Origin: a virus
DNA length: 64,000 nt
Reading direction: 5' to 3' (one strand)
Virus record (IMG/VR): IMGVR_UViG_3300021400_000206
Location: 1,615 to 65,614 of that record
A model generated the notes under the pieces. The model worked only from the letters and a program-made list of their open reading frames with translations, ran no database searches and was not told the origin of the DNA. Position numbers and translations under genes: made by a program. This document shows, in pieces, positions 7,844-51,171 of the stretch (its first letter is position 1; each line of letters opens with the position of its first letter).

Positions 7844-8380
7844 CTATTCCTCCTTTTTACTATCGTTAATCGTTTCTTCAAGCGCATTACCTAAATGACT
7901 CTTTGCCTTGAAGATATTAACTACAAATCTCAGCAGCCAACGCCACACGTCAACAACCTTAATCTCGATACCCCACTTTACGTAACAGTAGTGGCCAATG
8001 ATAGAAGCTAATTCAGCCAAGCAGCCTACACCTAATCCGATTGCAGCCGTATATACGTGGCTAAAGCCATTCATCGGTTCTGTTATGCCCAATCCAACAA
8101 AGGCACCAACTACAAGGTAGGTAATGTAATCCACCGACTTGTTTGCGCTTCGCCTGAGAGCTCTCGACTTATGCCACTTGTATTTCTCCATTCCGGCAGC
8201 ATCGCCGCTATCCTTCGCCTCGCAGTACCGCTTCATGGTGTCAGAATGTCCCCACCACAGATCAGCCAATATCAGCATTGCTGATAAAATGATCATGTAG
8301 CGGAGTTCAAAAGCTACCGAAACCATCTCGCCGCCAAAGATGGCAAGCGTAAAACCTTTGTTACCCATACTTGTCTCCAT
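7844..8380 (-). CDS. Holin
   Basis: Several hydrophobic segments, ADLWWG...SRALRRSANK...DY, ELASIIGH; immediately upstream of endolysin. Confidence 0.75.
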   Translation of the reverse strand: METSMGNKGFTLAIFGGEMVSVAFELRYMIILSAMLILADLWWGHSDTMKRYCEAKDSGDAAGMEKYKWHKSRALRRSANKSVDYITYLVVGAFVGLGITEPMNGFSHVYTAAIGLGVGCLAELASIIGHYCYVKWGIEIKVVDVWRWLLRFVVNIFKAKSHLGNALEETINDSKKEE

Positions 8381-36285: not shown

Positions 36286-37070
36286 TTTTTCGTGATAACG
36301 ACGCTCAACTCGCAGTGGTCGATATGATAATCTTGTGGTCGATATTTTTTTCTATCCGCCACCGCAAAACACCTCTGTTTATGCGGGTTTCAAAACGAAA
36401 TGATCGATTTTCGCTATATTTGAAATTTTCGACAAGAAAAAATTCGAATTTCACACTTTCACCGATTCCACTGCAAAAATACAAAATATCTCTCATATCA
36501 ACCACCTTTTATACAAAAACCCTCTATTTATTAAGCTTTTTTAGTGGTCGATATACTTTTTTCAATATTTTTTTATATACATCTTGTGGTAGTTATTGAC
36601 CACGTATCCCCATTTTCGCTATTGTTAAAATGACCCCAAAAATTATGAAAAATATTTTTTGGAGGCGACGTGACCTTGGATTGCACCCTGGGCACGGGGG
36701 TGCATAGGTATGCAATTTTTATGCAATTATCTGCATATCAGCCCATTGGCATGTTATATCGCGTGCAATAGTATTGAAATACTATTTTGATATTTTGTCA
36801 ATATTTTTTACTGGGTGGTTCACGCAATATTTTGCGCAAATTGTATCGCGCCCGCCTCAAATCAACGTAATTTTTACGCAATTTTCAAACGTTCCGGAAA
36901 TTGTTTCGTGTTCCATTTACACTATTTGCCATTTGCATATTATATCGCTATTTACTGGAAGATTACAGAAAACTCCGGTTTTATTTTTGCATGTAAAAAT
37001 AATTCATGTATAGAAAATAGCCTATTATTTAGAATTTTCCGAAATGTGCGTGTTAAAATGTGTAAACGTG

Positions 37071-37427: not shown

Positions 37428-38018
37428 ATGAGTATTTCTAAAAAAGTAGCTGCCGAAACTGCAAAGCAAGTTAAGCAGACAAGTGCGAAAGCATCAAAGG
37501 AAAGTGCAGCCGACAAACTGCAAGCAGCCGTTTTACTGGAGGGTAAGCAAGAACGCGCAAAGTCTGAATTAAGTAAGGCTTTCGAGCGTGCAGAGAACAG
37601 AGCGGCAGAGTTATTTAACTCTGACTGCTTGGCAAAGGTTCAGGAGATGATAGCAAGCCGTATCGAGTTAGCCCTGATTCAGGAGCGCAATTTGTTCAAG
37701 CAGCGCAATATTAACGGGGGATTCTCTGCCGAAATTCGTGTGCTTGATTCAATTCTTTCCAAAGGTAAGGAAGAATCCAACGGATTTAAGGTTAGATTTT
37801 CGGACACTGAAAACGGCTTGACTGCCACACCCGCCACTGATTTACACACTATGTTTGCAGCCGCTAAACAGAGCATGTTAAAAGTGAAAATTGCAGAGCG
37901 GGAAGAGAAAGCAGCAGCAGCCGCAAAGGAGGAGGAAAGAAAACTGGAGGTTATGAAAGAGGTAGGTATCACACCGGAGCAGTTAGCCGCACTTAAAGCA
38001 GCCGGAGTTATCAAGTAA
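37428..38018 (+). CDS. Hypothetical Ala/Lys/Glu-rich protein, stand-alone transcription unit
   Basis: Promoter TAACTTTG at 37330-37337; terminator immediately downstream. Confidence 0.8.
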   Translation: MSISKKVAAETAKQVKQTSAKASKESAADKLQAAVLLEGKQERAKSELSKAFERAENRAAELFNSDCLAKVQEMIASRIELALIQERNLFKQRNINGGFSAEIRVLDSILSKGKEESNGFKVRFSDTENGLTATPATDLHTMFAAAKQSMLKVKIAEREEKAAAAAKEEERKLEVMKEVGITPEQLAALKAAGVIK

Positions 38019-38037: not shown

Positions 38038-38063
38038 AAAGCCCGATTTATTCGGGCTTTTTC
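38038..38063 (+). terminator. Intrinsic terminator
   Basis: AAAGCCCGA-tttat-TCGGGCTTT followed by T-run. Confidence 0.85.
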
Positions 38064-38796
38064 TTTGCCCAAAAGTTTGCGTTTTAATGTAGCTTATCGG
38101 ATTTAATCCGGTAATCGGTCGCAAGCCCGAACGAATACAGAGTGGAACGCAATTCCCAAGCGAACGAACCGAACGAACGGCAAAGCTGGACGAACGGGGG
38201 AAAATTGCAAGCAGAGTTTCAGAGAAAAGTAGGCGAATAGCTAATGAATATCTGGGGCAAGCGGAGAATGAGGTATTTCTTTTGAGATCCCTGGGCAAGC
38301 CGCGACGCAAATCACTCCGTTCAGAGCGAACGACACCCGAACCGAAACAAGTTCGACAAGTGTTTTATAGATAAGGTCCTCGAGACAAAACTCTAATGAA
38401 CAAGTTATTATTTCCCATTGGAAATAGTAACATGAACACATAAATAAATCATATTCTTTTTAGGTCCTGGCTACTTGGATCTGGCGGGTGGTTCCCGCTG
38501 AAAGTACGATAGCACATTTAATCACTTTAGTATGTTATCATTCCGAACGAACACCGAACGATTAAGTACGATGAACGACCGGAAGCACGAAAGAAATTTA
38601 AGGTGTAAGACCTGAGTATAAAGAATGGTTCCCGAATGATTCATAAATCGGAATAAGGAACGGTTGCACGTAAAGAGGCCGAAAGGGACGTGCAGGAGAG
38701 AACAAGTACGATAATAAAAACGAAGTTCCTGAGACTACGGGAGAGAGTACGAGAAATCTGCTCTCTCTTGCCATTAACCCTTTAAAACAAACGAAT

Positions 38797-39009
38797 ATGA
38801 AAAAGAGATTATCAAGAATGCAGTTATTAGAGATTAAAGAAATTATCAGTAACTACAACATGGGATTTCTGACAAAGTTAGAATATAATTGTCAGATTAT
38901 CGCGGTCTATACCTGGGAAAGCAGGAGGCAGATACTATGGCACCTGGCTTGTCTGCTGCCCGAATGGATTCACAACCTGATTTTTAATATCAGAGCAAAT
39001 CGTTCTTAG
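38797..39009 (+). CDS. Hypothetical protein (70 aa)
   Basis: A-rich leader; stop codon fused to repeat element. Confidence 0.65.
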   Translation: MKKRLSRMQLLEIKEIISNYNMGFLTKLEYNCQIIAVYTWESRRQILWHLACLLPEWIHNLIFNIRANRS

Positions 39010-39070
39010 TCTTCACCGGTTATCAAGTACGATGACCGGACGATTTATTAACCAATTAAAACAAACGAAT

Positions 39071-39319
39071 ATGTTTAAATCAAGTTCAATGTTCCGTGGT
39101 GTTGTTACGATGAACAACGGCACACACAAGATTATCCGCGTAGGTGTTCAGATGGTTGCAAGAATTACGACCATGTTCAAGGAAGAGAAGAAGAACGTCT
39201 TCCGGAATGAGCAAAATCTCCTGGCCCTGGCTGGAAATGATATTCTGAACATTTCAGAGGTCAAGAGCATCAAGTTCATGTACGAACACAATCGCGAAGA
39301 GTTGCTGACTCTTGCTTAG
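39071..39319 (+). CDS. Hypothetical protein (start MFKSSS)
   Basis: Bounded by repeat elements. Confidence 0.75.
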   Translation: MFKSSSMFRGVVTMNNGTHKIIRVGVQMVARITTMFKEEKKNVFRNEQNLLALAGNDILNISEVKSIKFMYEHNREELLTLA

Positions 39320-39365
39320 TCTCTGGCGGGATTATTCCCGCTACTATTAACCAAACGATAAAGAT

Positions 39366-39599
39366 ATGAGAAAAAGAAAACTTAAAATGAGCTATCTTTC
39401 TGAATTAGGATTCAGTAAGTTTTGGCGCGGCAAAGTTGCAGGCATCAAAGGTTATTTCTATAGAATGGATAAGCCTCTGACCGATGAGCAACGAGAGTAC
39501 GTTTCGGGATTCTCGAATGTATCTCTTCACACATCATCTTGTGAGTACGCACCGGAAATCAAGCATGAAGTTGTTTTCCTGGCGGACAAGTGCTGGTAG
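39366..39599 (+). CDS. Hypothetical protein (77 aa)
   Basis: Bounded by repeat elements. Confidence 0.75.
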   Translation: MRKRKLKMSYLSELGFSKFWRGKVAGIKGYFYRMDKPLTDEQREYVSGFSNVSLHTSSCEYAPEIKHEVVFLADKCW

Positions 39600-39645
39600 T
39601 CTTAGCAGCCGAACGGCTGCACTATTAACCAAAAACAAAAGAATT

Positions 39646-39822
39646 ATGAAGTTATCTATCACTACAAAGTACGTTTTGATTTTCGTGTGCATTATTTGCG
39701 GGGTCGCTGCCATCATTTTCACGCCCGACCTTTACACTTTATCCCATCGTAATTACGGACCGGCTCTCGCGTTTCTTTTCGCCTGCCTCGCCACACTTCT
39801 TTGGGATTCCGTGGACGATTAG
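39646..39822 (+). CDS. Small two-TM membrane protein (start MKLSITT)
   Basis: Bounded by repeat elements; two hydrophobic segments. Confidence 0.7.
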   Translation: MKLSITTKYVLIFVCIICGVAAIIFTPDLYTLSHRNYGPALAFLFACLATLLWDSVDD

Positions 39823-39863
39823 TCTAAAGCAGCCGAACGGCTGCACCACTAACCAATAACAAT

Positions 39864-40034
39864 ATGATTTACAAGATTATTAAGAAACCGAGCGGGTTTT
39901 GGTATGTTGGAAAGCTACTGACTACCGACCCTGATGAGACTCCCGTGTATCAGCAGGTGAGCAACTTGTATTGCTACCGAGGCTGGGCGCAGGCGTTCTG
40001 TAGGCGAATGAAGATTAAGCCTATCAATTATTAA
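39864..40034 (+). CDS. Small hypothetical protein (56 aa; not in ORF track)
   Basis: Manual translation MIYKIIKKPSGFWYVGKLL...KIKPINY; bounded by repeat elements. Confidence 0.7.
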   Translation: MIYKIIKKPSGFWYVGKLLTTDPDETPVYQQVSNLYCYRGWAQAFCRRMKIKPINY

Positions 40035-40125
40035 TTAGTCTTGAGGGCGCGAGCGGACATTTTTTTCGTTTGTTTTAGTCTGCTTGCGCTTACTATGTTT
40101 AACCAACTAAAAGAAAGGAAAGAAT

Positions 40126-41922
40126 ATGTTGTATTTTAATTTCAAGAACTACGAAGAGTTTGAGAAGATTTTCGGTATCGTCAAGCATGGTAACGGAGTA
40201 GAGTCGCGCAAGAACAAGATTCTTCTGTCTCTCTACAAGGATAAGAAATGGTTCAGAAACCACGTTCTTAATAACGTTGCCGGTGATTACTCATGGGAGT
40301 TCAATAGGCTTTCAGATAGAGTTAGGGCGAAAATCAAGGGTAATAAACCCTCCCTAAGAGAAAGAATGATAAGGAATTATTACTCAGAAAGTTTCAATAA
40401 CGTATCAGACAAAGCCTATCTTGATCCATTGAAATGTACTAACGTCGCATCTCTGAGAGGTACGTTGTTCAGTATTCTGACCAACCCTCGTTTCTTTGTA
40501 TCAGATTCAGATTGCTACGAGTTACATCTCGGTGGAAGGTGTTTCTATTCTACTCAATTCAGGACTGATGATAATTGTGGTGTTTGTTGGGATGGAACCA
40601 CAAATGCCATACGTTATTACAATGTTGAGAAAGGGCGCGTTTTTAAGATGAAAGCAGGAAAGATGTTTAATCACATTCTTTCTTGTAATTCTATCTTATG
40701 CGATGCCCCTGAGCAGATTAAACGTTGGCTTTCAGAGGAGTTTGTGTCCGCCTGGATTGCATATTCCTCAGAGAAAGTCAACCCTGACAGATACAAACTC
40801 CATGTGGACGACAGATTTGATAAGATATACGACTCGAATTGTTGTGTAGGAAATTTCCATTCCTGCATGGTAGATAACGGGCAGTATAATTTCTACAAGA
40901 ACTCTGTCAAAGCCAAAGCTGCGTATATCACAGATAGTGACGACCGCATCGTTGCAAGATGTATCATTTTCCTTGATGTCGAAGACGAAGAGGGGAACAC
41001 CTACAATCTTGCCGAACGTCAGTATTCTTCGGATTCTGACCTCGACCTCCAAAGGTACCTGGTTAATTCGCTTATCCGCGAAGGCTATATCGATGGCTAC
41101 AAACGTGTTGGCGCAAGCTGCCACGATGCCGATGCTTTCGTAAGCAATAGCGGACAAGACTGGAGCGATAAGACATTCCATATCAGTTGCGAACTTGAAG
41201 AAGGAGGCACTTTGTCATACCAAGATTCATTCAAGTATTTCGATCTTGCCAATCAAATCGCTTCAAACAAGGATTTCTCTGGTGCTTGCGATCTGGCGAC
41301 AACGGATAGTACATTCGGAGGAGAAGATTCCTATTGGTCTGAGTACAACCAAGAGTACATTTCTGATAACGAAGCAATTTATGTTGAAACGCGAGATGAT
41401 TACTTCTATGACACTCAGACAGTAACTGCCAATGTGTGGTCAGACAGAACGAACTCATTCTATGAAGAGAGATGTTTCGAGAATGACTGCGTCTATTTCG
41501 ACAATGAATATTACTACGCAGGCACCGATGCATGTTATCCGGAAGACAACGGAATTCGTAAGTGCCCTCGCTGCGGTGATTACTTTGTCGATAGCGAAGA
41601 TTATTATTCTGAGCTTACAGAAGAATACTATTGCTGCGAATACTGCAAGGACAAGGACGAGGAGGATTACAAGGATGATAACTGGTATTACTCTAAGTAC
41701 GACGAAGATTATTTCGAGGACGAAGATGACGTGGTAGAAGCCTTCGAGTGGTCAGAAGCCAAAGGACGTTTCATACCTACAACCATCTCTGTCGCAACCT
41801 TCAACTCTCTCGTAGAATCGAGCAGTGCCACCATTTTCTATGGTGAGCGATTCATTGACGAGGTTCTTTATGACGGCGAGCCCGTACACGAGGACCTCCT
41901 CGACGCAAATCTCGTTGCCTAA
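40126..41922 (+). CDS. Large protein with HSCM/ARCIIF/ERQY core and acidic Cys/Tyr-rich C-terminus
   Basis: 598-aa ORF; CPRC and CCEYC zinc-finger-like motifs. Confidence 0.85.
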   Translation: MLYFNFKNYEEFEKIFGIVKHGNGVESRKNKILLSLYKDKKWFRNHVLNNVAGDYSWEFNRLSDRVRAKIKGNKPSLRERMIRNYYSESFNNVSDKAYLDPLKCTNVASLRGTLFSILTNPRFFVSDSDCYELHLGGRCFYSTQFRTDDNCGVCWDGTTNAIRYYNVEKGRVFKMKAGKMFNHILSCNSILCDAPEQIKRWLSEEFVSAWIAYSSEKVNPDRYKLHVDDRFDKIYDSNCCVGNFHSCMVDNGQYNFYKNSVKAKAAYITDSDDRIVARCIIFLDVEDEEGNTYNLAERQYSSDSDLDLQRYLVNSLIREGYIDGYKRVGASCHDADAFVSNSGQDWSDKTFHISCELEEGGTLSYQDSFKYFDLANQIASNKDFSGACDLATTDSTFGGEDSYWSEYNQEYISDNEAIYVETRDDYFYDTQTVTANVWSDRTNSFYEERCFENDCVYFDNEYYYAGTDACYPEDNGIRKCPRCGDYFVDSEDYYSELTEEYYCCEYCKDKDEEDYKDDNWYYSKYDEDYFEDEDDVVEAFEWSEAKGRFIPTTISVATFNSLVESSSATIFYGERFIDEVLYDGEPVHEDLLDANLVA

Positions 41923-41981
41923 GTCTCTTGACCCGTCTTGCATGGCGGGTCGCTATTATTAACCAACTAAATTTATAGAAT

Positions 41982-42989
41982 ATGAATAAGGATTTATTAT
42001 TTCAGCTTTATGGAGTTTTCTCTCCGAGTGGTAAAGAGCAGAAGATGCGCAAGTTCATCAAGGATTACATCAAGAAGAACTGCGGTAAGTGTGACGTGAA
42101 GCAGGATGATTCCGGAAACCTGTTCATTGTAAAAGGACAGAGCGAAACATATCCCTGCCTCGCTGCACACATCGACCAAGTACAGAGAACGCGCTACAAG
42201 GATTTCATATGCCTTGAGGTTGAGGATAAAGTGCTCGGCTGGTCTCCGAAGATGATGGAGCAGCAGGGCCTGGGTGCCGACGACAAGAACGGCATTTGGA
42301 TTTGTCTTGAATGTCTCAAGAAATATGATGTCCTCAAGGTTGCGTTCTTCGTAGGCGAAGAAATCGGCTGCGTTGGTTCGAGAGCCTGCGACATGAATTT
42401 CTTTGAAGACTGCCGCTTTATTGTTGAGCCTGACCGGATGGGATCTTCCGACCTCATCACGGATATGTTCTGTGGCGATGTCTGCTCTGCGGATTTCGTC
42501 GCTGCCCTGGATGCTTATTCGTTCGGCTACGAGCATGACCACGGAAGTGTTACTGACGTTGGCGAACTCGTCTCCCGTGGGGTAGGCATTAGTTGTCTGA
42601 ACGTGTCCTGCGGCTACTACAGAGCGCATACCGATAGAGAATACACCTGTCTCCCCGAGCTGGAGAACTGCTTGAATTTCGTATGCCACATCATTGAAAC
42701 ATGCGTCATTGTTTATCCTTTCGCCATGGACGATAAATACTACTTTAGCCATGGCGGTTATGGCGGTTATGACGATGACGAGGATTACTGCGATGAGGAC
42801 TACGACATGATGGAACTTCTTCTCCTCGATAATAGCACACTGACGTTCTCAGACATAATCGACGTGTATTCCGTGAATTTCTACACGCAGGACGTAGATA
42901 TCCTGCGCGATATGTACGATGCTGCCCGTGATAATCTTGGAATCGAAGAGAAAGACGAACTCCCATTCAGAATCACAAAAGTCTCTTAA
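41982..42989 (+). CDS. M20/M28-family zinc peptidase/amidohydrolase
   Basis: AHID, GADDKNG, GEEIGCVGS, DR, GYYRAHT metal-ligand motifs. Confidence 0.88.
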   Translation: MNKDLLFQLYGVFSPSGKEQKMRKFIKDYIKKNCGKCDVKQDDSGNLFIVKGQSETYPCLAAHIDQVQRTRYKDFICLEVEDKVLGWSPKMMEQQGLGADDKNGIWICLECLKKYDVLKVAFFVGEEIGCVGSRACDMNFFEDCRFIVEPDRMGSSDLITDMFCGDVCSADFVAALDAYSFGYEHDHGSVTDVGELVSRGVGISCLNVSCGYYRAHTDREYTCLPELENCLNFVCHIIETCVIVYPFAMDDKYYFSHGGYGGYDDDEDYCDEDYDMMELLLLDNSTLTFSDIIDVYSVNFYTQDVDILRDMYDAARDNLGIEEKDELPFRITKVS

Positions 42990-43083
42990 TTCAACGGAAT
43001 CTACGAAGAAACCGCTTAGTCTTTCGTGGGCCTTGCATGGCCCGCACTATTTATTGTTTAACCCTTTAAAATTAAAAAGAATT

Positions 43084-43989
43084 ATGGCAAAAAAGAATTT
43101 CAAAATCAAGAGTGTTGATGAAGTTAAGGTTGTAAATCGTAACTACAACTTGTATATTGATAGAGCTGGCTACTTGTCAGAGAGCGGCAAGCTTGTGTAC
43201 GTCAGAGTTACGAGCATCATCATTGACCTCAAGGCTCAGAGTGCTATCACAACCCTCCTGGATATGGAAGGTAGTGAGTATAAACGACAGGAAGGTTTCT
43301 TGCTCTATAATTCGCCTGACGACTTCGAGGCTAATCAACCCATTGATGCTTACCACCATGCGGTAATAGGATTGATAAATTACAACATTTCAAAGTTTAG
43401 TGACTCTGCCTCTGTAATCCCCAAGAAGGAGGGCGATACGAGTGAGTTCTGTTACGCCGGAGGCTATATCTTCCGCGACAACGATGCGCTCTTTGTTCCT
43501 TTCGAGATCAATAAGATTGAATGGAAGTATGGCAAGTGGTCAGTGGTTGATGGCTCCATTCCCGATGTGTACTACAGGAGTAGGGAAGACGCCTTCTCAT
43601 TCAACGAATACAAGGTGCTCGATGAGGATGGCGAGGAGTTCCTGGAACGCGGCAACAATCTGCGTCTCAAGTTGACCGATGAGCAGAAAGCCCTCGTTGA
43701 AGAGCTGAGGAAGTGCTTCCACAAGGCGCAACAAGCTGGTGTAAATTTCATTTGGGACCGCGAATGTTGCGGTTTTATTGAGGCTTACAACGGAAACGAA
43801 GTTACTGAATTTGGCTACAATGACGGTGGCCTCACAGAAGATGGAGACAATGTCGACATCAGTGAAGTAGAGACTTACAATACCGGCATCGATTTCTACG
43901 ACTTCAACTCATGCGAAGATTACTCATTCGTCTTCAAGAAGACACCTCGCCAACTCAAGGCATGGAAGAAGAGCCATCCCGAAGATTAG
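43084..43989 (+). CDS. Hypothetical protein (start MAKKNF)
   Basis: Bounded by repeat elements. Confidence 0.8.
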   Translation: MAKKNFKIKSVDEVKVVNRNYNLYIDRAGYLSESGKLVYVRVTSIIIDLKAQSAITTLLDMEGSEYKRQEGFLLYNSPDDFEANQPIDAYHHAVIGLINYNISKFSDSASVIPKKEGDTSEFCYAGGYIFRDNDALFVPFEINKIEWKYGKWSVVDGSIPDVYYRSREDAFSFNEYKVLDEDGEEFLERGNNLRLKLTDEQKALVEELRKCFHKAQQAGVNFIWDRECCGFIEAYNGNEVTEFGYNDGGLTEDGDNVDISEVETYNTGIDFYDFNSCEDYSFVFKKTPRQLKAWKKSHPED

Positions 43990-44042
43990 TCTTTAGCCCG
44001 CCCGTCAAGGCGGGTGCTATTAACCACAAAAAAAATATGATT

Positions 44043-44252
44043 ATGGCAAAGTTTATTAAAGTACACAAAGAGGTATTGAAAGACAAGCTTGATTACGAGC
44101 CTTTCTATGTTAATATCGACCACATTGTTCATGTTGGGATAGATCCTCGATATGGCAATAAATGTGTTCTACGATGCAGTAACGAATTTATGTTTATAAA
44201 AGAGTCACCTGACGAAATCATGGAACGTATTCGTGCAGTCAATCGTCTTTAG
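44043..44252 (+). CDS. Small protein, FlbD-like pattern
   Basis: MAKFIKV...YVNIDHI...IKESPDEI. Confidence 0.65.
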   Translation: MAKFIKVHKEVLKDKLDYEPFYVNIDHIVHVGIDPRYGNKCVLRCSNEFMFIKESPDEIMERIRAVNRL

Positions 44253-44292
44253 GGAGCCGCAGCTCCCACCATTAACCCTTAATTTTTAGAAT

Positions 44293-44655
44293 ATGAACGA
44301 ACAGAAATCAATCTACGCTTGCTATGAGGAAATCAAGCAGCGAGAAATCAGAGAGTTGAAAGAGAGATTGAAGGCTTTCGGTGGAGTGGCACATTTCGGA
44401 CCCGACTATACCGGAGAAGGAGCCACCGGCAGTAATATGCCTGCCGTGAGTATTAACTCTGACAACCGCGGGCCGCACGATGTCTTAATTCATGCGGTTG
44501 CCATTGACGACAAAGGCCATCTCACGATACTGGGCGACACATTGGAGGAAGAGGAGTACCCTTCTGAAATCAGTCTCGAGGATATCGCCTACGGCCACAT
44601 CGAGTTTATCACGGATGCTATTCCGCTCCGCGTTCAATCTGAACAATATCAGTGA
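44293..44655 (+). CDS. Hypothetical protein (120 aa)
   Basis: Preceded by repeat element. Confidence 0.75.
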   Translation: MNEQKSIYACYEEIKQREIRELKERLKAFGGVAHFGPDYTGEGATGSNMPAVSINSDNRGPHDVLIHAVAIDDKGHLTILGDTLEEEEYPSEISLEDIAYGHIEFITDAIPLRVQSEQYQ

Positions 44656-44744
44656 ATAATCCATATCTTATCTTTTTAGTTGGTTCGGGGCAGGGGAGAG
44701 AAATCTTCCCGCCCTTTCTATTTTTCACCATTATTCAAAAGTAT

Positions 44745-44888
44745 ATGACCGATTTAGCTAAATGGGTATGGATAATACTCATAGCCATCCTCTTTATGGG
44801 GCCCGTTGTCTTCATGATAATTGGTGCTTCCATTGTTGTATCAATTATCGCAGTGTTTGCCACCGGTATGCACAAGAAGAAGTATTAA
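44745..44888 (+). CDS. Small hydrophobic membrane peptide (start MTDLAK)
   Basis: Long hydrophobic stretch; stop fused to repeat element. Confidence 0.6.
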   Translation: MTDLAKWVWIILIAILFMGPVVFMIIGASIVVSIIAVFATGMHKKKY

Positions 44889-44941
44889 GTCTCAAAGCGG
44901 AGCAAAGGACTCCGCACTATGTTTAACCCTTTAAGAAGATT

Positions 44942-45493
44942 ATGAACAAAAGAGTATTGCTAAAGCAGTTTTCGTTCATTCCAAAGGATGAATTGGATTA
45001 CGAGCTTAAAAATGTGCGCAAGGATTACAAGACCGAACGCGGGTTCATGAATCATTTGACAAAAGTCAACGATGAGAACAAACGCAAGTTGACTATGTCG
45101 GATATCAGCGAACTTCGCATTGATGTTGAGTGGAAGAAATCCCGCTACTGGGGTAACTGCCCTCGCGCTGAGTGGCGTTGTTGGTTCAAGGACGGCTCTT
45201 TCATGAGTGGATCGGAGTACGCGAGCGGCTGTGGTTACGACAAACTATCACAGGTTGTTGCCGACGTATTCAATAAGGTTGCGAAGGGTATGGCCTGGCG
45301 CAAGCGAAACTCACGCAAGAAAGCTCCTTATGGACTCCGTCATGTAGGCAAATGCGCAGACAAAGGATGGCCTCCTTACTTCGAAGGTGGCATTGGTTCT
45401 AACTGCTATTACTCAATCGCAGAATATCTTGGTGGCAAGATGGTCTGGTCAGAAGGTAAGACGTGGGATCGATTCGATTTCAAGTTCAAGTAG
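44942..45493 (+). CDS. Hypothetical protein (183 aa)
   Basis: EWKKSRYWGNCP, ASGCGYDKLS, FEGGIG motifs. Confidence 0.8.
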   Translation: MNKRVLLKQFSFIPKDELDYELKNVRKDYKTERGFMNHLTKVNDENKRKLTMSDISELRIDVEWKKSRYWGNCPRAEWRCWFKDGSFMSGSEYASGCGYDKLSQVVADVFNKVAKGMAWRKRNSRKKAPYGLRHVGKCADKGWPPYFEGGIGSNCYYSIAEYLGGKMVWSEGKTWDRFDFKFK

Positions 45494-45573
45494 TGAATAG
45501 CTTTCATTTTAGTTGGTTGGGGGCCGCGTGGAGAAATCCGCCGGCCTCTTCTATTAACCAAAAAGTAAAGTAT

Positions 45574-46299
45574 ATGATTATCAATGGAAAAGTACATTGT
45601 TTTTTCGAACAATCCGGTACATTTAAGAAGGAGTTCATCAAGTTAGGAATCCCTGCTCTGGATTACGACATTCAGAATAATTTCGGTGAGACAGACTATG
45701 TTATAGACTTGTTCGCTGAGATCTGGAATGCGTATGACGACAAGGCGAGTCTGTTTGACAATATCGACCGAGAGAACGACCTCATCATTGCGTTCTTCCC
45801 GTGCATATTCTTCTCTCAGCAGAACTCTACCTTCTTCGATGGAACGAACACGACTCTGAAAAAATACTCCACCAAAGAGAAAATGGATATTATCCTGGAG
45901 CGCAACCGGCAGAGATCACGTTTCTACGAGACCTGCCTCAAGATGTTCGTTACCGCAGACTTGCGCGGATTAAGAATGATTGTTGAGAATCCTTTTTCTA
46001 CAATTCACTTCCTCTACAACAATTTCCCGTACAAGCCAACGTTCATCGACAGAGACCGACAGAGGCGCGGCGACTATTTCCGTAATCCTACTCAATATTG
46101 GTTCATCAACTGCGAGCCTACCTATGGTAGGTCGTTTCAAAAGCCCGAGCAGGTCCGAACGGTCAACGGGCTAACCGGGCACCAAGGAAATCTGTGCGAC
46201 GAGGACCGCTCTCTTATCAGTCCGGATTACGCCCGCAACTTTATCTGCGACTTTGTTATAGGAAGGGAGCAGCGATTCTCTGAGCCTTCTTTGTTTTAG
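45574..46299 (+). CDS. DNA cytosine-C5 methyltransferase-like protein
   Basis: CFFEQSG (variant motif I), YDI, AFFPC (motif IV), IVENP (motif VI), PTQYW. Confidence 0.65.
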   Translation: MIINGKVHCFFEQSGTFKKEFIKLGIPALDYDIQNNFGETDYVIDLFAEIWNAYDDKASLFDNIDRENDLIIAFFPCIFFSQQNSTFFDGTNTTLKKYSTKEKMDIILERNRQRSRFYETCLKMFVTADLRGLRMIVENPFSTIHFLYNNFPYKPTFIDRDRQRRGDYFRNPTQYWFINCEPTYGRSFQKPEQVRTVNGLTGHQGNLCDEDRSLISPDYARNFICDFVIGREQRFSEPSLF

Positions 46300-46349
46300 T
46301 CTTCGCCCTCACTGAGGGCACCATGTTTAACCCTTTAAATTTATAGAAT

Positions 46350-46691
46350 ATGTTAAGATGGTATTACAATAATCGCATTGGTGACATCTATGTCAAATGC
46401 GAAGACGGAAAAGTCCGTAGGGTAAATATCTTTGGTGGAAATGCTCTTTGTATCTTCACTCAGTGGTTCAAGGACGCAAAGACCGGTAAGATGATGGAGC
46501 GATTGCTTAACTTCTACAATGACGAGAAGCATATCAAAAACATCATCAAGGGAACCGGTAAACTCGCGCCTATCGACGACATCACGTCCATCCGCCTCAA
46601 CATCTACTACAGCGAGGCTTTGATTCTCGCAAAGTATCTTGCAAGATGGTACAAGGTTACACTCTACTACAAAGAGCCTAAGAGCAAGTAG
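46350..46691 (+). CDS. Hypothetical protein (113 aa)
   Basis: Bounded by repeat elements. Confidence 0.75.
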   Translation: MLRWYYNNRIGDIYVKCEDGKVRRVNIFGGNALCIFTQWFKDAKTGKMMERLLNFYNDEKHIKNIIKGTGKLAPIDDITSIRLNIYYSEALILAKYLARWYKVTLYYKEPKSK

Positions 46692-46745
46692 TCCCATGGG
46701 TGCTCATGCACCCGCTATTATGTCAAACCATTTAATAAAAGAATT

Positions 46746-47228
46746 ATGAATAATATTGAAATGAAGAATTTGCGTGAGGAGTGCTTTAACTTGGTGAAGG
46801 ATTTTATGCCTGCTGACTGCTGCCTGGGCGACGTTAGCGGAGTGTTCTTCTTCTTCGACAAGCCATTTGTGGCCTCTATCGACAAGAGAGAGAAATTAAT
46901 GGAGCCAATACGCAGCGAGGAACAGGTCCGTGCCGTGTTCTACACTTACAACCGGCTCTGTCCTGCTGACTGCATCATAGTCATCCGCGAGGGTAATCTC
47001 AAAGCTTTTCAGATGCCGCTATTTAGCGAGGACCTGCATAGCAAGATCAAGCTGGAGCTCACCAACCTCATCGCAAAGAAACGACTGTTCCCTGTGCCAA
47101 TGAGGGAGATTGGAAACGACATCTTCTCTTTCCCGACAAGTCAGGCATCCACACGTTTCATCAATAGTTCGATGACTCGTCGGGCCATGTTTGCCGAAGA
47201 GCTGGCCCATATCCGGACTGTCCGCTAA
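46746..47228 (+). CDS. Hypothetical protein (160 aa)
   Basis: Bounded by repeat elements. Confidence 0.75.
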   Translation: MNNIEMKNLREECFNLVKDFMPADCCLGDVSGVFFFFDKPFVASIDKREKLMEPIRSEEQVRAVFYTYNRLCPADCIIVIREGNLKAFQMPLFSEDLHSKIKLELTNLIAKKRLFPVPMREIGNDIFSFPTSQASTRFINSSMTRRAMFAEELAHIRTVR

Positions 47229-47277
47229 GTCTCATGCTCCCTTCGGGGAGAACTATTAACCCTTAAAAAGAAGAATT

Positions 47278-47739
47278 ATGAATTTAAATCAGTTATTAGA
47301 GACGAGAGAAACGCATCGTCAGCAGTTGCTTGAAGCACTTGAGCAGTTCGTTCGCGACAATGGTGACGACATGTCCGATTATTACCGAGACGAGCATGGT
47401 ATCGACGAAGATTACTACGGCTACGATGTTGTAAAAATCCTCGACACCGCACAATTTGGCTGCGCTTTCCCATGTGCGTTGAGAATCAACGACGACGATC
47501 TGGAAAAAGCAGACTCCATCGACGACCTCTGCGACTCATTCGAGTTTCATGCGTTTTGGTCCTTCTATATTGCAAAAGACAGAAAGACAGGTGAAGAATC
47601 TCTCATGTACTATGAGTTCTGCTGCCCTGGCATAAGATGGAGCGACGAATCATCTTATACTTATCATGAGGCGGCTTTCGACTTGAGTCTCGAAGTTCTC
47701 GAAAACATTATCTCTGCCATCGAATCAGGCATGAAGTAG
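47278..47739 (+). CDS. Highly acidic hypothetical protein (153 aa)
   Basis: Bounded by repeat elements; D/E-rich. Confidence 0.75.
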   Translation: MNLNQLLETRETHRQQLLEALEQFVRDNGDDMSDYYRDEHGIDEDYYGYDVVKILDTAQFGCAFPCALRINDDDLEKADSIDDLCDSFEFHAFWSFYIAKDRKTGEESLMYYEFCCPGIRWSDESSYTYHEAAFDLSLEVLENIISAIESGMK

Positions 47740-47795
47740 TCTAACTATCATTTTCGTGACCTCACGGAAATGGTACCATTAACCCTTTAAAAAAT

Positions 47796-48116
47796 ATGAT
47801 TATGGAAAAGAAATTAATTCCCGCTCCAATCGATGAGAAGAATATCACGAGCGACTGGATTGAAGAGATCTTCGATAACTACACATGCACATGGAGAAAA
47901 GACTGCGCAGTCGGCTTCATAAACAATGTAGCAGTCATGGCCGCCTGGAGTTCCAACATATTGATGTGGAAGTTCATGGAAGAGGCAAATATTGAAGAGG
48001 CTTATGTCGTCCTAAAAGATAGGCTTTCGCGCTATGACGGACAGACAAGTGTCGTCGAAAAGAAGAGACGTGTAGGAAACATGCTGATTCAGCAGTTCTT
48101 TTTCGAAGACGAGTAG
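47796..48116 (+). CDS. Hypothetical protein (106 aa)
   Basis: Bounded by repeat elements. Confidence 0.75.
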   Translation: MIMEKKLIPAPIDEKNITSDWIEEIFDNYTCTWRKDCAVGFINNVAVMAAWSSNILMWKFMEEANIEEAYVVLKDRLSRYDGQTSVVEKKRRVGNMLIQQFFFEDE

Positions 48117-48164
48117 TCTTGAAAGCGGCTTAAATAGGCCGTTTTCGCAACCATCAACCATCGT

Positions 48165-48330
48165 AGATGTTCAATTTGTTGTTCAATTTTTGAACATCTA
48201 CGCACTCTTGTTGTTCAATTTTTGAACATCTACAAGTCGTTGTTGTTCAATTTTTGAACATCTACGGACCTTATTGTTCAATTTGTTGTTCAATTTGTTG
48301 TTCAATTTTTGAACATTAAACTGAACATTA
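48165..48330. repeat. Iteron-like array, candidate replication origin
   Basis: Palindrome TGTTCAA-TTT-TTGAACA at 48180, 48212, 48244 and 48299 plus TGTTCAATTTG half-sites; very AT-rich tract at 48445-48535. Confidence 0.8.
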
Positions 48331-48653
48331 AGGGAAAAAGAGAACAATTTTAAGGGGGTTTTGTTCGCAAATAGAACAATTTTTACGTGGATTTTTGTCA
48401 AAAAACCGGTAATTTCCATTTTCTTGACAAATTTTCCTCGCGCGTAATATTATATTATTCTTTAAGAAAAATAATATATATAAATATATATTTTAAAAAG
48501 AATTTTCCTTCTTATCGAAAAAATATATTATTTTTGCACCTATAAGCCTTTATGAAGGCGAAGCCTTCTTAGGTATAACGAAGCCTTAACGCGCGCGCGT
48601 ATAGGGGTCTCACGTAGGCTTGCCTACCCATACAAACCAAAAGATTCAAGAGT

Positions 48654-49583
48654 ATGATAGAAATCAAAGGATTAACTTTAGAACAGAACAAGAAATATCA
48701 GGCTTCTATAAGCCAGGGGTATTTCGATGGTTACGAGGAGAATCCGCGTGAGTGGAGGCACACGTTCGTAGGGGCTTTCGTTTGGAAATACCCTCTACGC
48801 ACCTCTGTGCTAAACTACTTCCGCGACATGTTGGGCCATGTGCCTACATGGGAGGATATCAACGACCTCAACCTGATGGACTTGCGTGAGGAGTTGTCAA
48901 AGCACTACTGCAACAACACATTGCACAATCGCTTTGCCGAACTCAAGGCTATCATCGGTGAGTATAGCGGTGTTATCAATATCCCTACGACAAGGCCCAA
49001 CAAGATTCTCAAGGCAAAGGAGGAGTCCCCTCAGAATATCTATCTGTCCGAGAGCGAGGTTGATCGTATTCATAACTACGTCCCTCAAACGAATACGGAG
49101 CAGTACGTAAAGAAGATATTCATGATTGAGGCCCTTACCGGAGCCCGTAACATTGACTCTAAGCGAATGAACCGGAGCAACGTTCACTTTGACACCGATT
49201 GTGTGCGCTACGTATCACAGAAGGTCAAGAACGAAATCGTCCTTCCTATTCATCGCTACCTCATGTCCTATCTCGCTGACCCCATAGAAGAGCAGGTCGC
49301 ACTCTCTACGTTCAACCGAACACTGAGGATTATCTGCAAGCGATGTGGTATCAACGAGAAGGTGACTCTCTTTCGTGAAGGAGAGTGGCACACCAAAGAG
49401 AAATGGGCATTCGTCTCATCCCACACCGGACGAAGATGCTTTGCCACGAATCTCTTTGTACGAGGTGCAGACCCATCACTCATCGCCCGTTACATGGGCC
49501 ATTCCTCACCGGAGATAACCATCAAGCGGTATATCGTAGGTTATCGCCAGGCGGATCAGAAGGTCTTGCGCTTCTTTCACTGA
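48654..49583 (+). CDS. Tyrosine recombinase without arm-binding domain
   Basis: LTGAR, SQK, SSHTGRR.FATN, MGHS, KRY give a complete catalytic set; promoter TATTTTTG at 48529-48536. Confidence 0.9.
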   Translation: MIEIKGLTLEQNKKYQASISQGYFDGYEENPREWRHTFVGAFVWKYPLRTSVLNYFRDMLGHVPTWEDINDLNLMDLREELSKHYCNNTLHNRFAELKAIIGEYSGVINIPTTRPNKILKAKEESPQNIYLSESEVDRIHNYVPQTNTEQYVKKIFMIEALTGARNIDSKRMNRSNVHFDTDCVRYVSQKVKNEIVLPIHRYLMSYLADPIEEQVALSTFNRTLRIICKRCGINEKVTLFREGEWHTKEKWAFVSSHTGRRCFATNLFVRGADPSLIARYMGHSSPEITIKRYIVGYRQADQKVLRFFH

Positions 49584-49615
49584 CAGAATCGTCACAAACC
49601 GGCGAGATATGTTTT

Positions 49616-49933
49616 ATGCAAGAAAAGAAAGTTATTATCGCAGAGGTACGCAGTATCTTTGCTGATGCTGCCGAGGGCCGTGACCTTGAGAACATCGAGG
49701 GACGCCTCTCTATCGCAGCCACCAAGTTAGATGCACTTAACGATAACAAGTGCAAAGGTATCATCGAAGCAATCGATGCAGTCAGAAAAAGCATTGGTAA
49801 AGACCCAGATAAGGCACGTTACCATATCAAAGCTCTCACCTCACTTTTGCGTGATGACACAAGTGGCGCACAAGAAGCACTTGACGAACTCCAAGTTCAC
49901 ACTCTTGTCAGCACTCCCTCGCAAGGCGTTTAG
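49616..49933 (+). CDS. Hypothetical helical protein (start MQEKKV)
   Basis: Stop fused to repeat element. Confidence 0.65.
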   Translation: MQEKKVIIAEVRSIFADAAEGRDLENIEGRLSIAATKLDALNDNKCKGIIEAIDAVRKSIGKDPDKARYHIKALTSLLRDDTSGAQEALDELQVHTLVSTPSQGV

Positions 49934-49935
49934 TC

Positions 49936-51171
49936 TTAGGGCACTCCGGTGCCCGCTATGTAACCAACCACGCGAATCACGGCGGCATCAATCTTCTTTT
50001 GGTCCCCTGCCATGTAACGTGCAGTTACATTCTTGGTCCATGAGTGACCGAGACACATGCCGATAGTTCGCTCGCTGATGTCAAGGTCGTTGGCGGCAAT
50101 CGAGCCGAACGAGTATCGGGAAGAATAAAGGGTTATATTCGGACAGATGGGCGCATACTCCACTTTACGGAGTTTGCCCATCTTGTCTTTTACTTTCCAT
50201 GATGGCCCCACCTTCTTGAGTGCATCACCGCAGGCATGTGTGAACGACCGGTACGAGGTCCTGCAGTCCATGAAACCAAGCAGCCATCCCTCTCTCGACG
50301 GATAGCGGTCTATAATCTCTTGGGCCTCCCGAACGACCGGAAGGGTTATCGTGCGAACCTTTGTGGCACCCTCCTTGTCTGTCTTTCTTCTTATGAAGCT
50401 GATATGCCCGTCTTTTATGGCATCCGCTTTCAGGCTCAGAAGATCCACGGCATTCATACCGGCAAGGTAAAGCGAAAGGAAAAAGAAATCAACATAAGGT
50501 TTCTGCCAGCTCTCGCAGGGAAAGTCGCGCAGTCTTCTAAGCACTTCTACGGGTATATTGTTGGGAGTTGTCTCCTGCTCTACGATGTGGTAATCCGTGA
50601 AAGGGTAGTTCTTTGTGTAACCCTTTCTCCGGGCCCAATTAAACACGGCCCTGATGTTACGCAATTCCTTACCTATTCCGTTGGTGCCCATTCCAAGGGA
50701 TTTAAAGTGTGCTCTGAACGACTCAAGCCACTCAGCCGAACAATTATCCAATGTCGCTCTGTCATCGTACTGAGCGACCTTATTTGCGGTCAGCATATAG
50801 ATGGAACGAGTGCTTGCCTTCTTTGCGTCCGCAAACTCTCTGATAAAATCAGATAACAACTTGTATCTTTCTTTTGGTTTGACACCAAGCACCTCTTGCT
50901 GAATCCTGGCTTTGAGGTGTTTGTTATCCAACTCTGTCATTTCTGACATCATACACAATGCTTCTGTGTCTGTCAGATACTTACAGAGAAGGGTAGTCTT
51001 TACCTTCCCGTTCTTATCCGACTTCGGGAAGGTCCTTCCAACCAATCTGTCTGTTGTGGTCATGCCCGCATTAACAAAAAAGCGGCCTGCATGATTCTTT
51101 ACTACGATGTAAACGGGATAGCTGCCATCGGCATTTGCCCGTGTCATGTCTACATAAGGATAGATTCTCAT
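49936..51171 (-). CDS. int: Phage integrase (tyrosine recombinase with N-terminal arm-binding domain)
   Basis: Start MRIYPY..DGSYPVYI; SAM-like domain LRNIRAVFNWA; GMNAVDL, RRKT, YSSRYSF, LGHS, TARY; adjacent to attP. Confidence 0.9.
   Translation of the reverse strand: MRIYPYVDMTRANADGSYPVYIVVKNHAGRFFVNAGMTTTDRLVGRTFPKSDKNGKVKTTLLCKYLTDTEALCMMSEMTELDNKHLKARIQQEVLGVKPKERYKLLSDFIREFADAKKASTRSIYMLTANKVAQYDDRATLDNCSAEWLESFRAHFKSLGMGTNGIGKELRNIRAVFNWARRKGYTKNYPFTDYHIVEQETTPNNIPVEVLRRLRDFPCESWQKPYVDFFFLSLYLAGMNAVDLLSLKADAIKDGHISFIRRKTDKEGATKVRTITLPVVREAQEIIDRYPSREGWLLGFMDCRTSYRSFTHACGDALKKVGPSWKVKDKMGKLRKVEYAPICPNITLYSSRYSFGSIAANDLDISERTIGMCLGHSWTKNVTARYMAGDQKKIDAAVIRVVGYIAGTGVP

Follow-up and report, generated by a model that had tools for sequence, protein, structure and literature searches.

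In phages of gut Bacteroidales, long runs of genes have no assigned function, and the acquisition and expression of such genes are a puzzle. The window analysed here, a 64-kb stretch (bases 1615-65614) of the 65.6-kb IMG/VR virus record IMGVR_UViG_3300021400_000206, raises this question at one locus: an array of 17 co-oriented + strand genes (38731-49965), lying between a 0.7-kb non-coding leader and recombinase genes, has a folded element at almost every gene boundary. The gene-boundary module described in the initial annotation is present in the sequence and consists, in order, of a stop-embedded TA(A)GTCT box, a hairpin that is rich in GC and differs in sequence from copy to copy, a short spacer, TTAACC, and an A-rich leader ending at the ATG. 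We give about an even chance to the combined statement that these elements are lineage-specific expression adaptors punctuating a long accessory operon and also crossover points of cassettes. The best reading is that they may be a promoterless analogue of the promoter-early stem-loops (PeSLs) of T4-type phages.

About 20 junction elements, variants included, occupy the + strand of the array (Table 1), as the initial annotation had claimed for almost every gene boundary. The window contains 20 + strand copies of TAGTCT (12 at 39007-49931), five copies of TAAGTCT (three within the array) and 18 + strand copies of TTAACC (14 at 38774-47779). The composite pattern AGTCT-N12-42-TAACC has 16 matches, 13 of them + strand array copies, against 3.0 +/- 1.7 in dinucleotide shuffles, none of 100 shuffles reaching 16. 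The TAG or TAA of the box is the in-frame stop of an open reading frame (ORF) of at least 40 amino acids in 12 of 15 window array copies (exceptions at 40036, 40076 and 43017); across four related arrays the same holds for 35 of 42 copies, compared with 72 of 740 TAA/TAG triplets in the background. The fusion counted earlier as 14 of 18 is real, with a tally that depends on how variants are counted (here 12 of 15 TA(A)GTCT copies). Variant junctions lie at 38731, 44250, 44653, 45491, 46689, 48114 and 48605. The elements are 28-50 nt long, three longer ones excepted, with typical stems of 5-9 bp, and make up almost all of the intergenic space in the array. The leaders before ATG are A-rich and have no Shine-Dalgarno sequence; in elements of the window's type (type I) the distance from box to ATG has a median of 16 nt and a range of 8-22 nt.

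Related phages carry the same elements. A search with the recombinase at the array end identified a relative (locus L120, 40% identity) with the same elements and different stems, and a search with a 598-amino acid array protein identified 13 viral loci. Type I elements occur in L121-L123. Type II elements, found in L126, L127, L128, L130, L131 and L133, have the 5' box AGCCT, the spacer ACATCA or ACATGT, and the same TTAACC-like box and leader. Arrays are missing from L124, L125, L129, L132, eight prophage loci of Bacteroidales genomes and bases 1-50000 of Bacteroides phage LoVEphage. A MAFFT alignment of 31 elements (A2) and an alignment of 12 elements (A3) placed the stems out of register. 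A covariance model was seeded with nine elements of equal geometry (A4), with hairpins longer than 34 nt excluded as seeds, and rebuilt as model R2 from 38 realigned hits (A5); an intragenic false positive recurring in type II loci was left out of the fold tables. Searched against 474,628 bases from 22 sources, R2 has 50 matches at E<=1, of which 14 are in the window; every one is on the + strand and falls within a homologous array, in the window, in L121-L123 or among L126-L133. Whole-record scans likewise confine R2 matches to the array and to one strand. The covariance search of related phages proposed in the initial annotation thus recovers the same element in related arrays. R2 misses six of the about 20 window junctions (38731, 39007, 44653, 45491, 47737 and 48114).

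Outside these phages the element is nearly absent from the sequences searched: R2 has no match in five Bacteroidales genomes and a single weak one (E 0.018), among a capped number of candidates scored per genome, in 151 further Bacteroidales genomes. Rfam at gathering thresholds identifies two tRNAs in the window and no element, and at E<=1 no Rfam match overlaps any element, in keeping with the novelty initially suggested. No earlier description of such elements in Bacteroidales phages surfaced in the portions of the literature covered by our searches. A scan of viral contigs with a loose pattern was set aside, as most of its matches were isolated and attributable to chance. The AGYCU and UUAACC boxes are kept across phages whose shared proteins are merely 34-56% identical, and the 5' box is uniform inside a genome and differs by lineage (AGTCT or AGCCT). 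Two window junctions (44653-44744 and 45491-45559) form a second class, the 5' side of which is the reverse complement of the usual TTAACC leader. This 5' side, TTTTAGTTGGTT, has further copies at about 14760-14815 in L121 and 14165-14230 in L122, and the box can sit inside a long stem. TTAACC with an A-rich leader and ATG occurs without a preceding hairpin in more distant prophages (L134 at 6000 and 7623, L139 at 11552); the hairpin module may have arisen later than the box and leader.

The stems vary and keep pairing. Pairing holds in 98.1% of cells of the model alignment, and each of the six pairs has examples in which both partners have changed; none of 500 shuffles reaches the score, and no slid register approaches it. 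Independently of the model, the orthologous elements that follow the 598-amino acid gene in the window and three relatives have four different stems around one shared loop. In fixed 45-nt windows chosen by position alone (n=109), the + strand is the stabler in 80 and the - strand in 27, with two ties (Wilcoxon p 1.8e-9). G-U pairs number 108 of 860 on the + strand and 29 of 737 on the - strand, and four-base loops are of the GNRA or UNCG type in 17 of 40 cases read on the + strand and in 3 of 40 on the - strand. Covariation, + strand stability, the G-U bias and the loop types together favour selection of the hairpin on the sense strand, as RNA, as first surmised, and make an RNA-level role of the hairpin highly likely. 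The further suggestion that TAGT pairs with ACTA or GCTA at the base of the hairpin is poorly supported: only 73.6% of cells in this basal helix are paired, and 19 of 36 sequences are mismatched at its second pair without any compensation. A UUGCAU hexaloop sits on different stems in 8 of 87 non-redundant hairpins (window 41929-41952 and 43026-43045, and six in L121-L123); it may be a recognition feature of a subset of elements.

An RNA-level role might be transcription termination. The stem is followed by a spacer that begins RCYA, and no U-run follows the hairpin directly as in an intrinsic terminator. Hairpin plus T-run signals are in use elsewhere in the same phage, with a canonical example at 38038-38066, and the initial view that the elements are not ordinary terminators is upheld on both counts. 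Because this T-run hairpin precedes the leader's ribozyme (see below), the array transcript would either read through a terminator or start after it. A subtler possibility is that the hairpins are attenuation or antitermination sites that pause or partly terminate transcription, with a factor acting from the leader or the boxes setting how far transcription reaches. The long non-coding leader with repeated motifs ahead of the array would fit this, as would the recurrence of the leader motif GTACGATAAT in the loops of the first elements, the stable GC-rich stems with tetraloops typical of terminators, and the last element, which lies between convergent genes where a terminator is expected. Several spacers are also T-rich; a lenient terminator scan picks out six elements, in which the T-rich spacers are interrupted. 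However, the T-run directly after the stem is missing in a phage that has a canonical one, the ORF before the leader belongs to no Pfam or PHROG family and so offers no NusG-like match, and no candidate factor co-occurs with the elements. We regard attenuation as unlikely.

Nor do the elements resemble promoters. The Bacteroides-type -7 motif TAnnTTTG occurs once in the 9.4-kb array, inside an ORF; outside it, there are candidates at 36982 and 37330, upstream of the array, and at 48529, ahead of the recombinase gene. Sigma-70-like sites are at chance level (32 versus 29.2). We infer that the array is one operon. A host-type promoter within the elements was rejected, as they contain no -33/-7 motifs. 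Alternatively, each element could be a promoter for a phage-type polymerase, making every gene its own transcription unit as in PeSL-bearing phages or among T7-like middle genes. The TTAACC core may resemble part of T3-type promoters, and a position after a hairpin and just upstream of a gene is the PeSL layout (PMC2839356). This is nevertheless very improbable: besides the missing host-type motifs, the box is merely 8-22 nt from the ATG and three large ORFs that were checked are not polymerases. No PF00940 polymerase was detected in four records that bear elements, one of which is 100% complete; this blank is weak, as the controls were silent too.

The junction of stop codon and start codon suggests another role, in which a terminating ribosome melts the hairpin, and the refolding stem and the UUAACC leader pass the ribosome to the next AUG. 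The fusion of the stop to the 5' box in 35 of 42 copies and the short, bounded distance from box to AUG are as this would predict, and so are the A-rich leaders that lack a Shine-Dalgarno sequence; Bacteroidia ribosomes ignore such sequences, according to two studies (PMC6847099, PMC7797042). TTAACC and leader also precede a few genes without any hairpin in the more distant prophages. Yet 3 of the 15 copies in the window lack stop fusion, no gene follows the last element, and elements 0 and 18 have no upstream cistron; stop fusion is also explicable by compaction and by homology that begins at the stop codon. Translational coupling or re-initiation thus seems an outside chance, on a par with attenuation. 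Both are live rivals to a role in processing, stabilisation or insulation, and none of these roles is mutually exclusive. Processing, stabilisation or insulation is the role that we favour tentatively, at slightly less than an even chance, from the features of the sequence.

The start of the leader contains a probable twister-P1 ribozyme matching the full Rfam model (Table 1), and a syntenic full-length match of 47.2 bits with different stems is found at L122:7197-7258. In L121 the equivalent position (8129-8184) is occupied by a probable hammerhead of textbook shape: it has the CUGAUGA and GAAA cores, a GUC triplet for cleavage and three stems, and is predicted to fold into a three-way junction. 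No such ribozyme was found in type II loci or L123. As two ribozyme classes occupy one position, the leader RNA may well be cut by self-cleavage, and the cut may be a required one; the pair also offers a testable case for the biological role of these ribozymes. Leader ribozymes fit an operon that relies on RNA processing, and they say nothing direct about the elements. A bold extension would make every junction a cleavage site in a ribozyme-headed system of mRNA punctuation. An RtcB-type ligase was not among ten further window proteins scanned against Pfam. The initial annotation had likened the elements to RNase-processing, antitermination or re-initiation sites, with the early RNase III sites of T7 as the analogue. 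Selection on the sense strand and the probable ribozymes fit the RNA-level part of that proposal; the likeness to T7 is weaker, as T7-type RNase III sites need duplexes longer than the typical 5-9 bp of the stems here. Repetitive REP elements and T7 early RNase III sites are intercistronic hairpins that can protect upstream mRNA or mark processing sites, and REPs close to stop codons affect the upstream gene. The phage elements are likewise hairpins between cistrons of a polycistronic RNA. However, no sequence relation to these systems and no Rfam match was found, RNase III substrates typically have longer stems than the 5-9 pairs of these elements, and no RAYT-type transposase is seen here.

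The second part of the combined statement concerns gene exchange. Homologues of the window array ORFs (n=17, recombinase included) number six in L121, five in L122 and three each in L123 and L126; the only widely shared array genes are those for the 598-amino acid protein, the peptidase-like protein and the recombinase. Two genes stand in opposite order in the window and in L121. Among near-identical type II phages, 17 of 22 boundaries (in L126 coordinates) fall in the zone from -45 to +50 around the box, which makes up 14.5% of the array, and five of six pure indels join at or abut the box. The window itself was compared with assembled contigs of public runs. In contigs from three other studies (X2, X3 and X4) position 38773 is joined to 39045, so that one gene is lost box-to-box. 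One X3 contig has 298 other letters in place of 39356-39604, and another carries inserts of about 590 letters at 47237-47256 and about 290 at 47797-47809. Two weaker joints with short sides link 39620 to 40092 and 40033 to 45549. The check originally called for, on whether gain, loss and replacement break at the element, therefore comes out in favour, mostly at TTAACC. Because the junctions of relatives and contigs fall at the box, what is exchanged as a unit runs from TTAACC through leader, ORF, stop box and hairpin to the spacer. Judged from these comparisons, the elements are very probably crossover points of cassette exchange. The data identify the sites of surviving junctions, not the enzyme responsible.

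Could that enzyme be a dedicated recombinase? The initial annotation had envisaged integron-like one-gene cassettes with structure-defined sites, and in such a system a recombinase or single-strand nuclease would cut TTAACC by the hairpin. Much of the layout is as in integron arrays: one-gene, co-oriented, apparently promoterless units with a folded element downstream of each gene, junctions in a conserved 3' box, which leave the fold attached to the gene before it, and a tyrosine recombinase close by, here at the array end. Moreover, the elements persist while gene content turns over, and gene 39646-39822 is flanked by two elements with identical stems. The sites themselves differ. The attC site of integrons is a recombinogenic single-strand fold of about 57-141 nt with extrahelical bases, and a fold of 35-50 nt seems too short for two recombinase monomers; the phage elements are 28-50 nt long (three longer) and stabler on the sense strand, with RNA-specific GNRA and UNCG loops. 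The pairing of RYYYAAC with GTTRRRY at the attC base, already reported as absent, is indeed not found: the flanks AGYCT and TTAACC are not complementary and form no inverted core sites, the only possible pairing being TAGT with ACTA, a basal helix without covariation.

The proteins do not point to a dedicated enzyme either. Homologues of the 309-amino acid recombinase occur in two element-bearing phages (G157 and G159), and also in LoVEphage and in G161, which have no elements in the parts scanned (bases 1-50000 and the 17-kb locus L132, respectively). The phage recombinase is thus not a dedicated, linked integrase: it is distal in the array, co-oriented with it and kept in element-less relatives, and no preferred insertion point is evident at the array head. 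Family searches of the array proteins reveal no HUH or other nuclease family. In a comparison of 92 window ORFs against three records with elements and three without (64-100% complete, by tblastn, which is insensitive for small proteins), only ORF 21469-21888 of the structural module tracked the elements, and it belongs to no Pfam family; no candidate partner protein otherwise co-occurs with them. What stands of the integron proposal is the cassette-like turnover, the reordering and the junctions at the box; what lacks support is the mechanism. Structure-defined, integron-like recombination sites are therefore improbable, and equal doubt attaches to phage-borne cassette capture, in which a phage or host enzyme would recognise the fold and TTAACC and move single genes while the hairpins ensure their expression. 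Were such capture real, the array would be a phage counterpart of the integron. General rather than site-specific recombination is the likely driver of exchange.

Under the combined proposal of expression adaptors that double as crossover points, the 17-gene array would be read as one transcript from upstream of the 0.7-kb leader, which would cleave itself at the ribozyme. Each cistron would end at a stop codon within the AGYCU box, a few bases before a very stable hairpin. Following cleavage in the single-stranded region of spacer, UUAACC and A-rich leader, the hairpin would serve as a protected 3' end for the upstream cistron and would keep the Shine-Dalgarno-less leader of the next gene free from upstream pairing. 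Because the hairpin would act on both sides in this way, any inserted gene would be expressed with standard signals. The repeated boxes would be where whole genes are lost, gained, replaced or put in a new order among related phages, most likely through general or microhomology-driven recombination, as proposed for T4-type PeSLs, with no dedicated site-specific recombinase.

Two phage systems provide the closest comparisons. According to Arbiol et al. 2010 (PMC2839356) and Comeau et al. 2014 (PMC4122927), PeSLs are repeated composite intergenic motifs that run from stop codon to next start codon, contain a stem-loop with G-T pairs, are concentrated where genes of unknown function abound, and hold the indel and replacement junctions between close relatives; a repeated intergenic stem-loop motif in a gene-variable region, with junctions in the motif, is also what the phage array presents. 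In contrast, PeSLs as described there are built on a strong sigma-70 promoter and have stem-loops that terminate, whereas the phage elements have neither a promoter motif, host-type early promoters included, nor a T-run. What is conserved here is a pair of short boxes, AGYCT and TTAACC, and the setting is a temperate siphovirus-like phage of a Bacteroidales host. Mini-circles have been shown by experiment for PeSLs; the elements here are known from sequence alone.

The second system is the SAS/ESAS motifs of Cluster K mycobacteriophages. According to Pope et al. 2011 (PMC3203893), these are short asymmetric motifs in one orientation just upstream of non-structural gene starts, often preceded by an inverted repeat with a variable spacer, lineage-restricted and essentially absent from hosts, with a consensus that differs between sublineages. 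The phage elements are similarly oriented, lie at a bounded distance from the start and are lineage-restricted. However, the inverted repeats of ESAS are conserved in sequence (17 bp in that account), whereas the phage stems vary freely and covary, which argues for an RNA structure and not a protein-binding DNA site. SAS also resembles a ribosome-binding site, of a kind that the Bacteroidales host group does not use, and the part of PMC3203893 available reports no cassette junctions at SAS.

Several points weigh against the proposal. Fitting alignment A5 to the model tilts its pair counts towards the structure; the hairpins were picked by folding the + strand, a bias that the fixed-window control lessens without removing. 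No RNA run is listed as containing the region, and two from the source sample share next to none of its sequence words. The twister-P1 scores of 53.8 and 47.2 bits are below the gathering score of 67.2, and the L121 hammerhead is a weak Rfam match (25.4 bits), also below its gathering threshold. Three boundaries among the type II phages are intragenic (L126 9588-9841, 10128-10312 and 8955-8963). A junction at TTAACC marks the limit of resolution, as alignments run through the shared motif, and homologous and site-specific exchange are inseparable on this basis; selection for intact genes alone would put surviving junctions in the element, because the intergenic space is almost all element. The pattern of box conservation would also fit an unfound trans-acting factor or concerted evolution.

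If the proposal is true, a standard, portable adaptor would account for the expression of unrelated genes from a single operon in a host that does not recognise Shine-Dalgarno sequences, and for the clean exchange of entire genes among phages. It would also be a ready-made part for multi-gene operons in Bacteroides. PeSL-type modular shuffling would extend, in a promoterless form, to another phage group and host phylum, and the array is a defined place to look for anti-defence or host-takeover genes.

Table 1. Features of the array region in window coordinates; bit scores of elements are those of covariance model R2
Feature	Position	Strand	Details
Hairpin with T-run	38038-38066	+	Canonical terminator shape; after ORF 37428-38018, directly before twister
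Non-coding leader	38064-38790	+	About 0.7 kb; repeated GTACGATAAT and GAACGA motifs; homologous leader at L120 1-960
Probable twister-P1 ribozyme	38081-38148	+	Rfam RF03160, 53.8 bits, E 5.7e-10 over 12.3 kb, full model 1-68; leader start
Element 0, variant	38731-38779	+	AGACTA instead of TAGTCT; 14-pair hairpin, GAAA loop; TTAACC 38774; precedes gene 38797-39009
Element 1	39007-39053	+	TAGTCT is stop of 38797-39009; loop with AAGTACGAT; TTAACC 39048
Element 2	39317-39352	+	Stop-fused; 38.5 bits
Element 3	39597-39630	+	Stop-fused; 44.2 bits; GCAGCC/GGCTGC stem identical to element 4
Element 4	39820-39854	+	Stop-fused; CTAACC variant; 41.8 bits
Element 5, composite	40036-40104	+	Two TAGTCT, neither a stop; long stem, T-rich loop; TTAACC 40099; 26.8 bits
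Element 6	41920-41964	+	TAAGTCT is stop of 598-amino acid gene; TTGCAT loop
Element 7	43017-43063	+	Not stop-fused (stop 42987-42989); TTGCAT loop
Element 8	43987-44025	+	Stop-fused
Element 9, variant	44250-44277	+	Stop TAG straight into hairpin, no GTCT; TTAACC 44272; 33.4 bits
Element 10, second class	44653-44744	+	TTTTTAGTTGGTT, reverse complement of usual AACCAACTAAAA leader; then long hairpin; no TTAACC
Element 11	44886-44928	+	Stop-fused (TAAGTCT)
Element 12, second class	45491-45559	+	TTTTAGTTGGTT and 16-pair hairpin, GAAA loop; TTAACC 45554 in hairpin base
Element 13	46297-46332	+	Stop-fused
Element 14, variant	46689-46729	+	TAGTCC, CAAACC; 32.8 bits
Element 15	47226-47261	+	Stop-fused; UUCG tetraloop
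Element 16	47737-47784	+	Stop-fused; 13-pair stem with G-T pairs
Element 17	48114-48161	+	Stop-fused TAGTCT; imperfect hairpin; CAACC for TTAACC; iterons downstream, no gene
Element 18, variant	48605-48638	+	GGGTCT, CAAACC; 24.0 bits; just 5' of recombinase gene
Element 19	49931-49965	+	Stop-fused; between convergent genes; no leader or ATG downstream; 38.9 bits
Tyrosine recombinase, 309 amino acids	48654-49583	+	Distal array end; PF00589, E 4.4e-13

The window encodes a terminase, portal, capsid, 1915-amino acid tape measure, tail fibre, helicase and two tyrosine recombinases. Its nearest named phage is LoVEphage, whose large terminase (TerL) is 51% identical, and the element-bearing phages are a group of temperate, siphovirus-like Bacteroidales phages that are distant kin of LoVEphage. 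Nearly all array proteins are without a family, the exceptions being a peptidase-like protein, a DNA methyltransferase and a weak FlbD-like match. The 598-amino acid Cys-rich protein and the adjacent M42-like peptidase (40126-42989) are encoded by the only array genes common to all related arrays, and these genes are present also in element-less relatives. The 598-amino acid protein has no family in the ESM Atlas and no family or fold lead; among deposited phages it has a single match, to an unannotated 4.3-kb fragment, and megablast of the array against deposited phages gave no match.

The leader motif AGTACGATAAT (window 38064-38790, L120 240-960) recurs in the hairpin loops of first elements (window 39025, L123 9364 and 9669, L126 box 9152) and may be a regulator binding site. 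Iteron-like direct repeats lie at the array end in the window (48160-48340) and in mid-array in L120 (6900-7200), with different sequences; the putative origin seems to move as a module as well. Downstream of the recombinases in L122, a match to the 3' part of tmRNA (21473-21566, E 9.5e-9) is possibly the attachment site of that phage.

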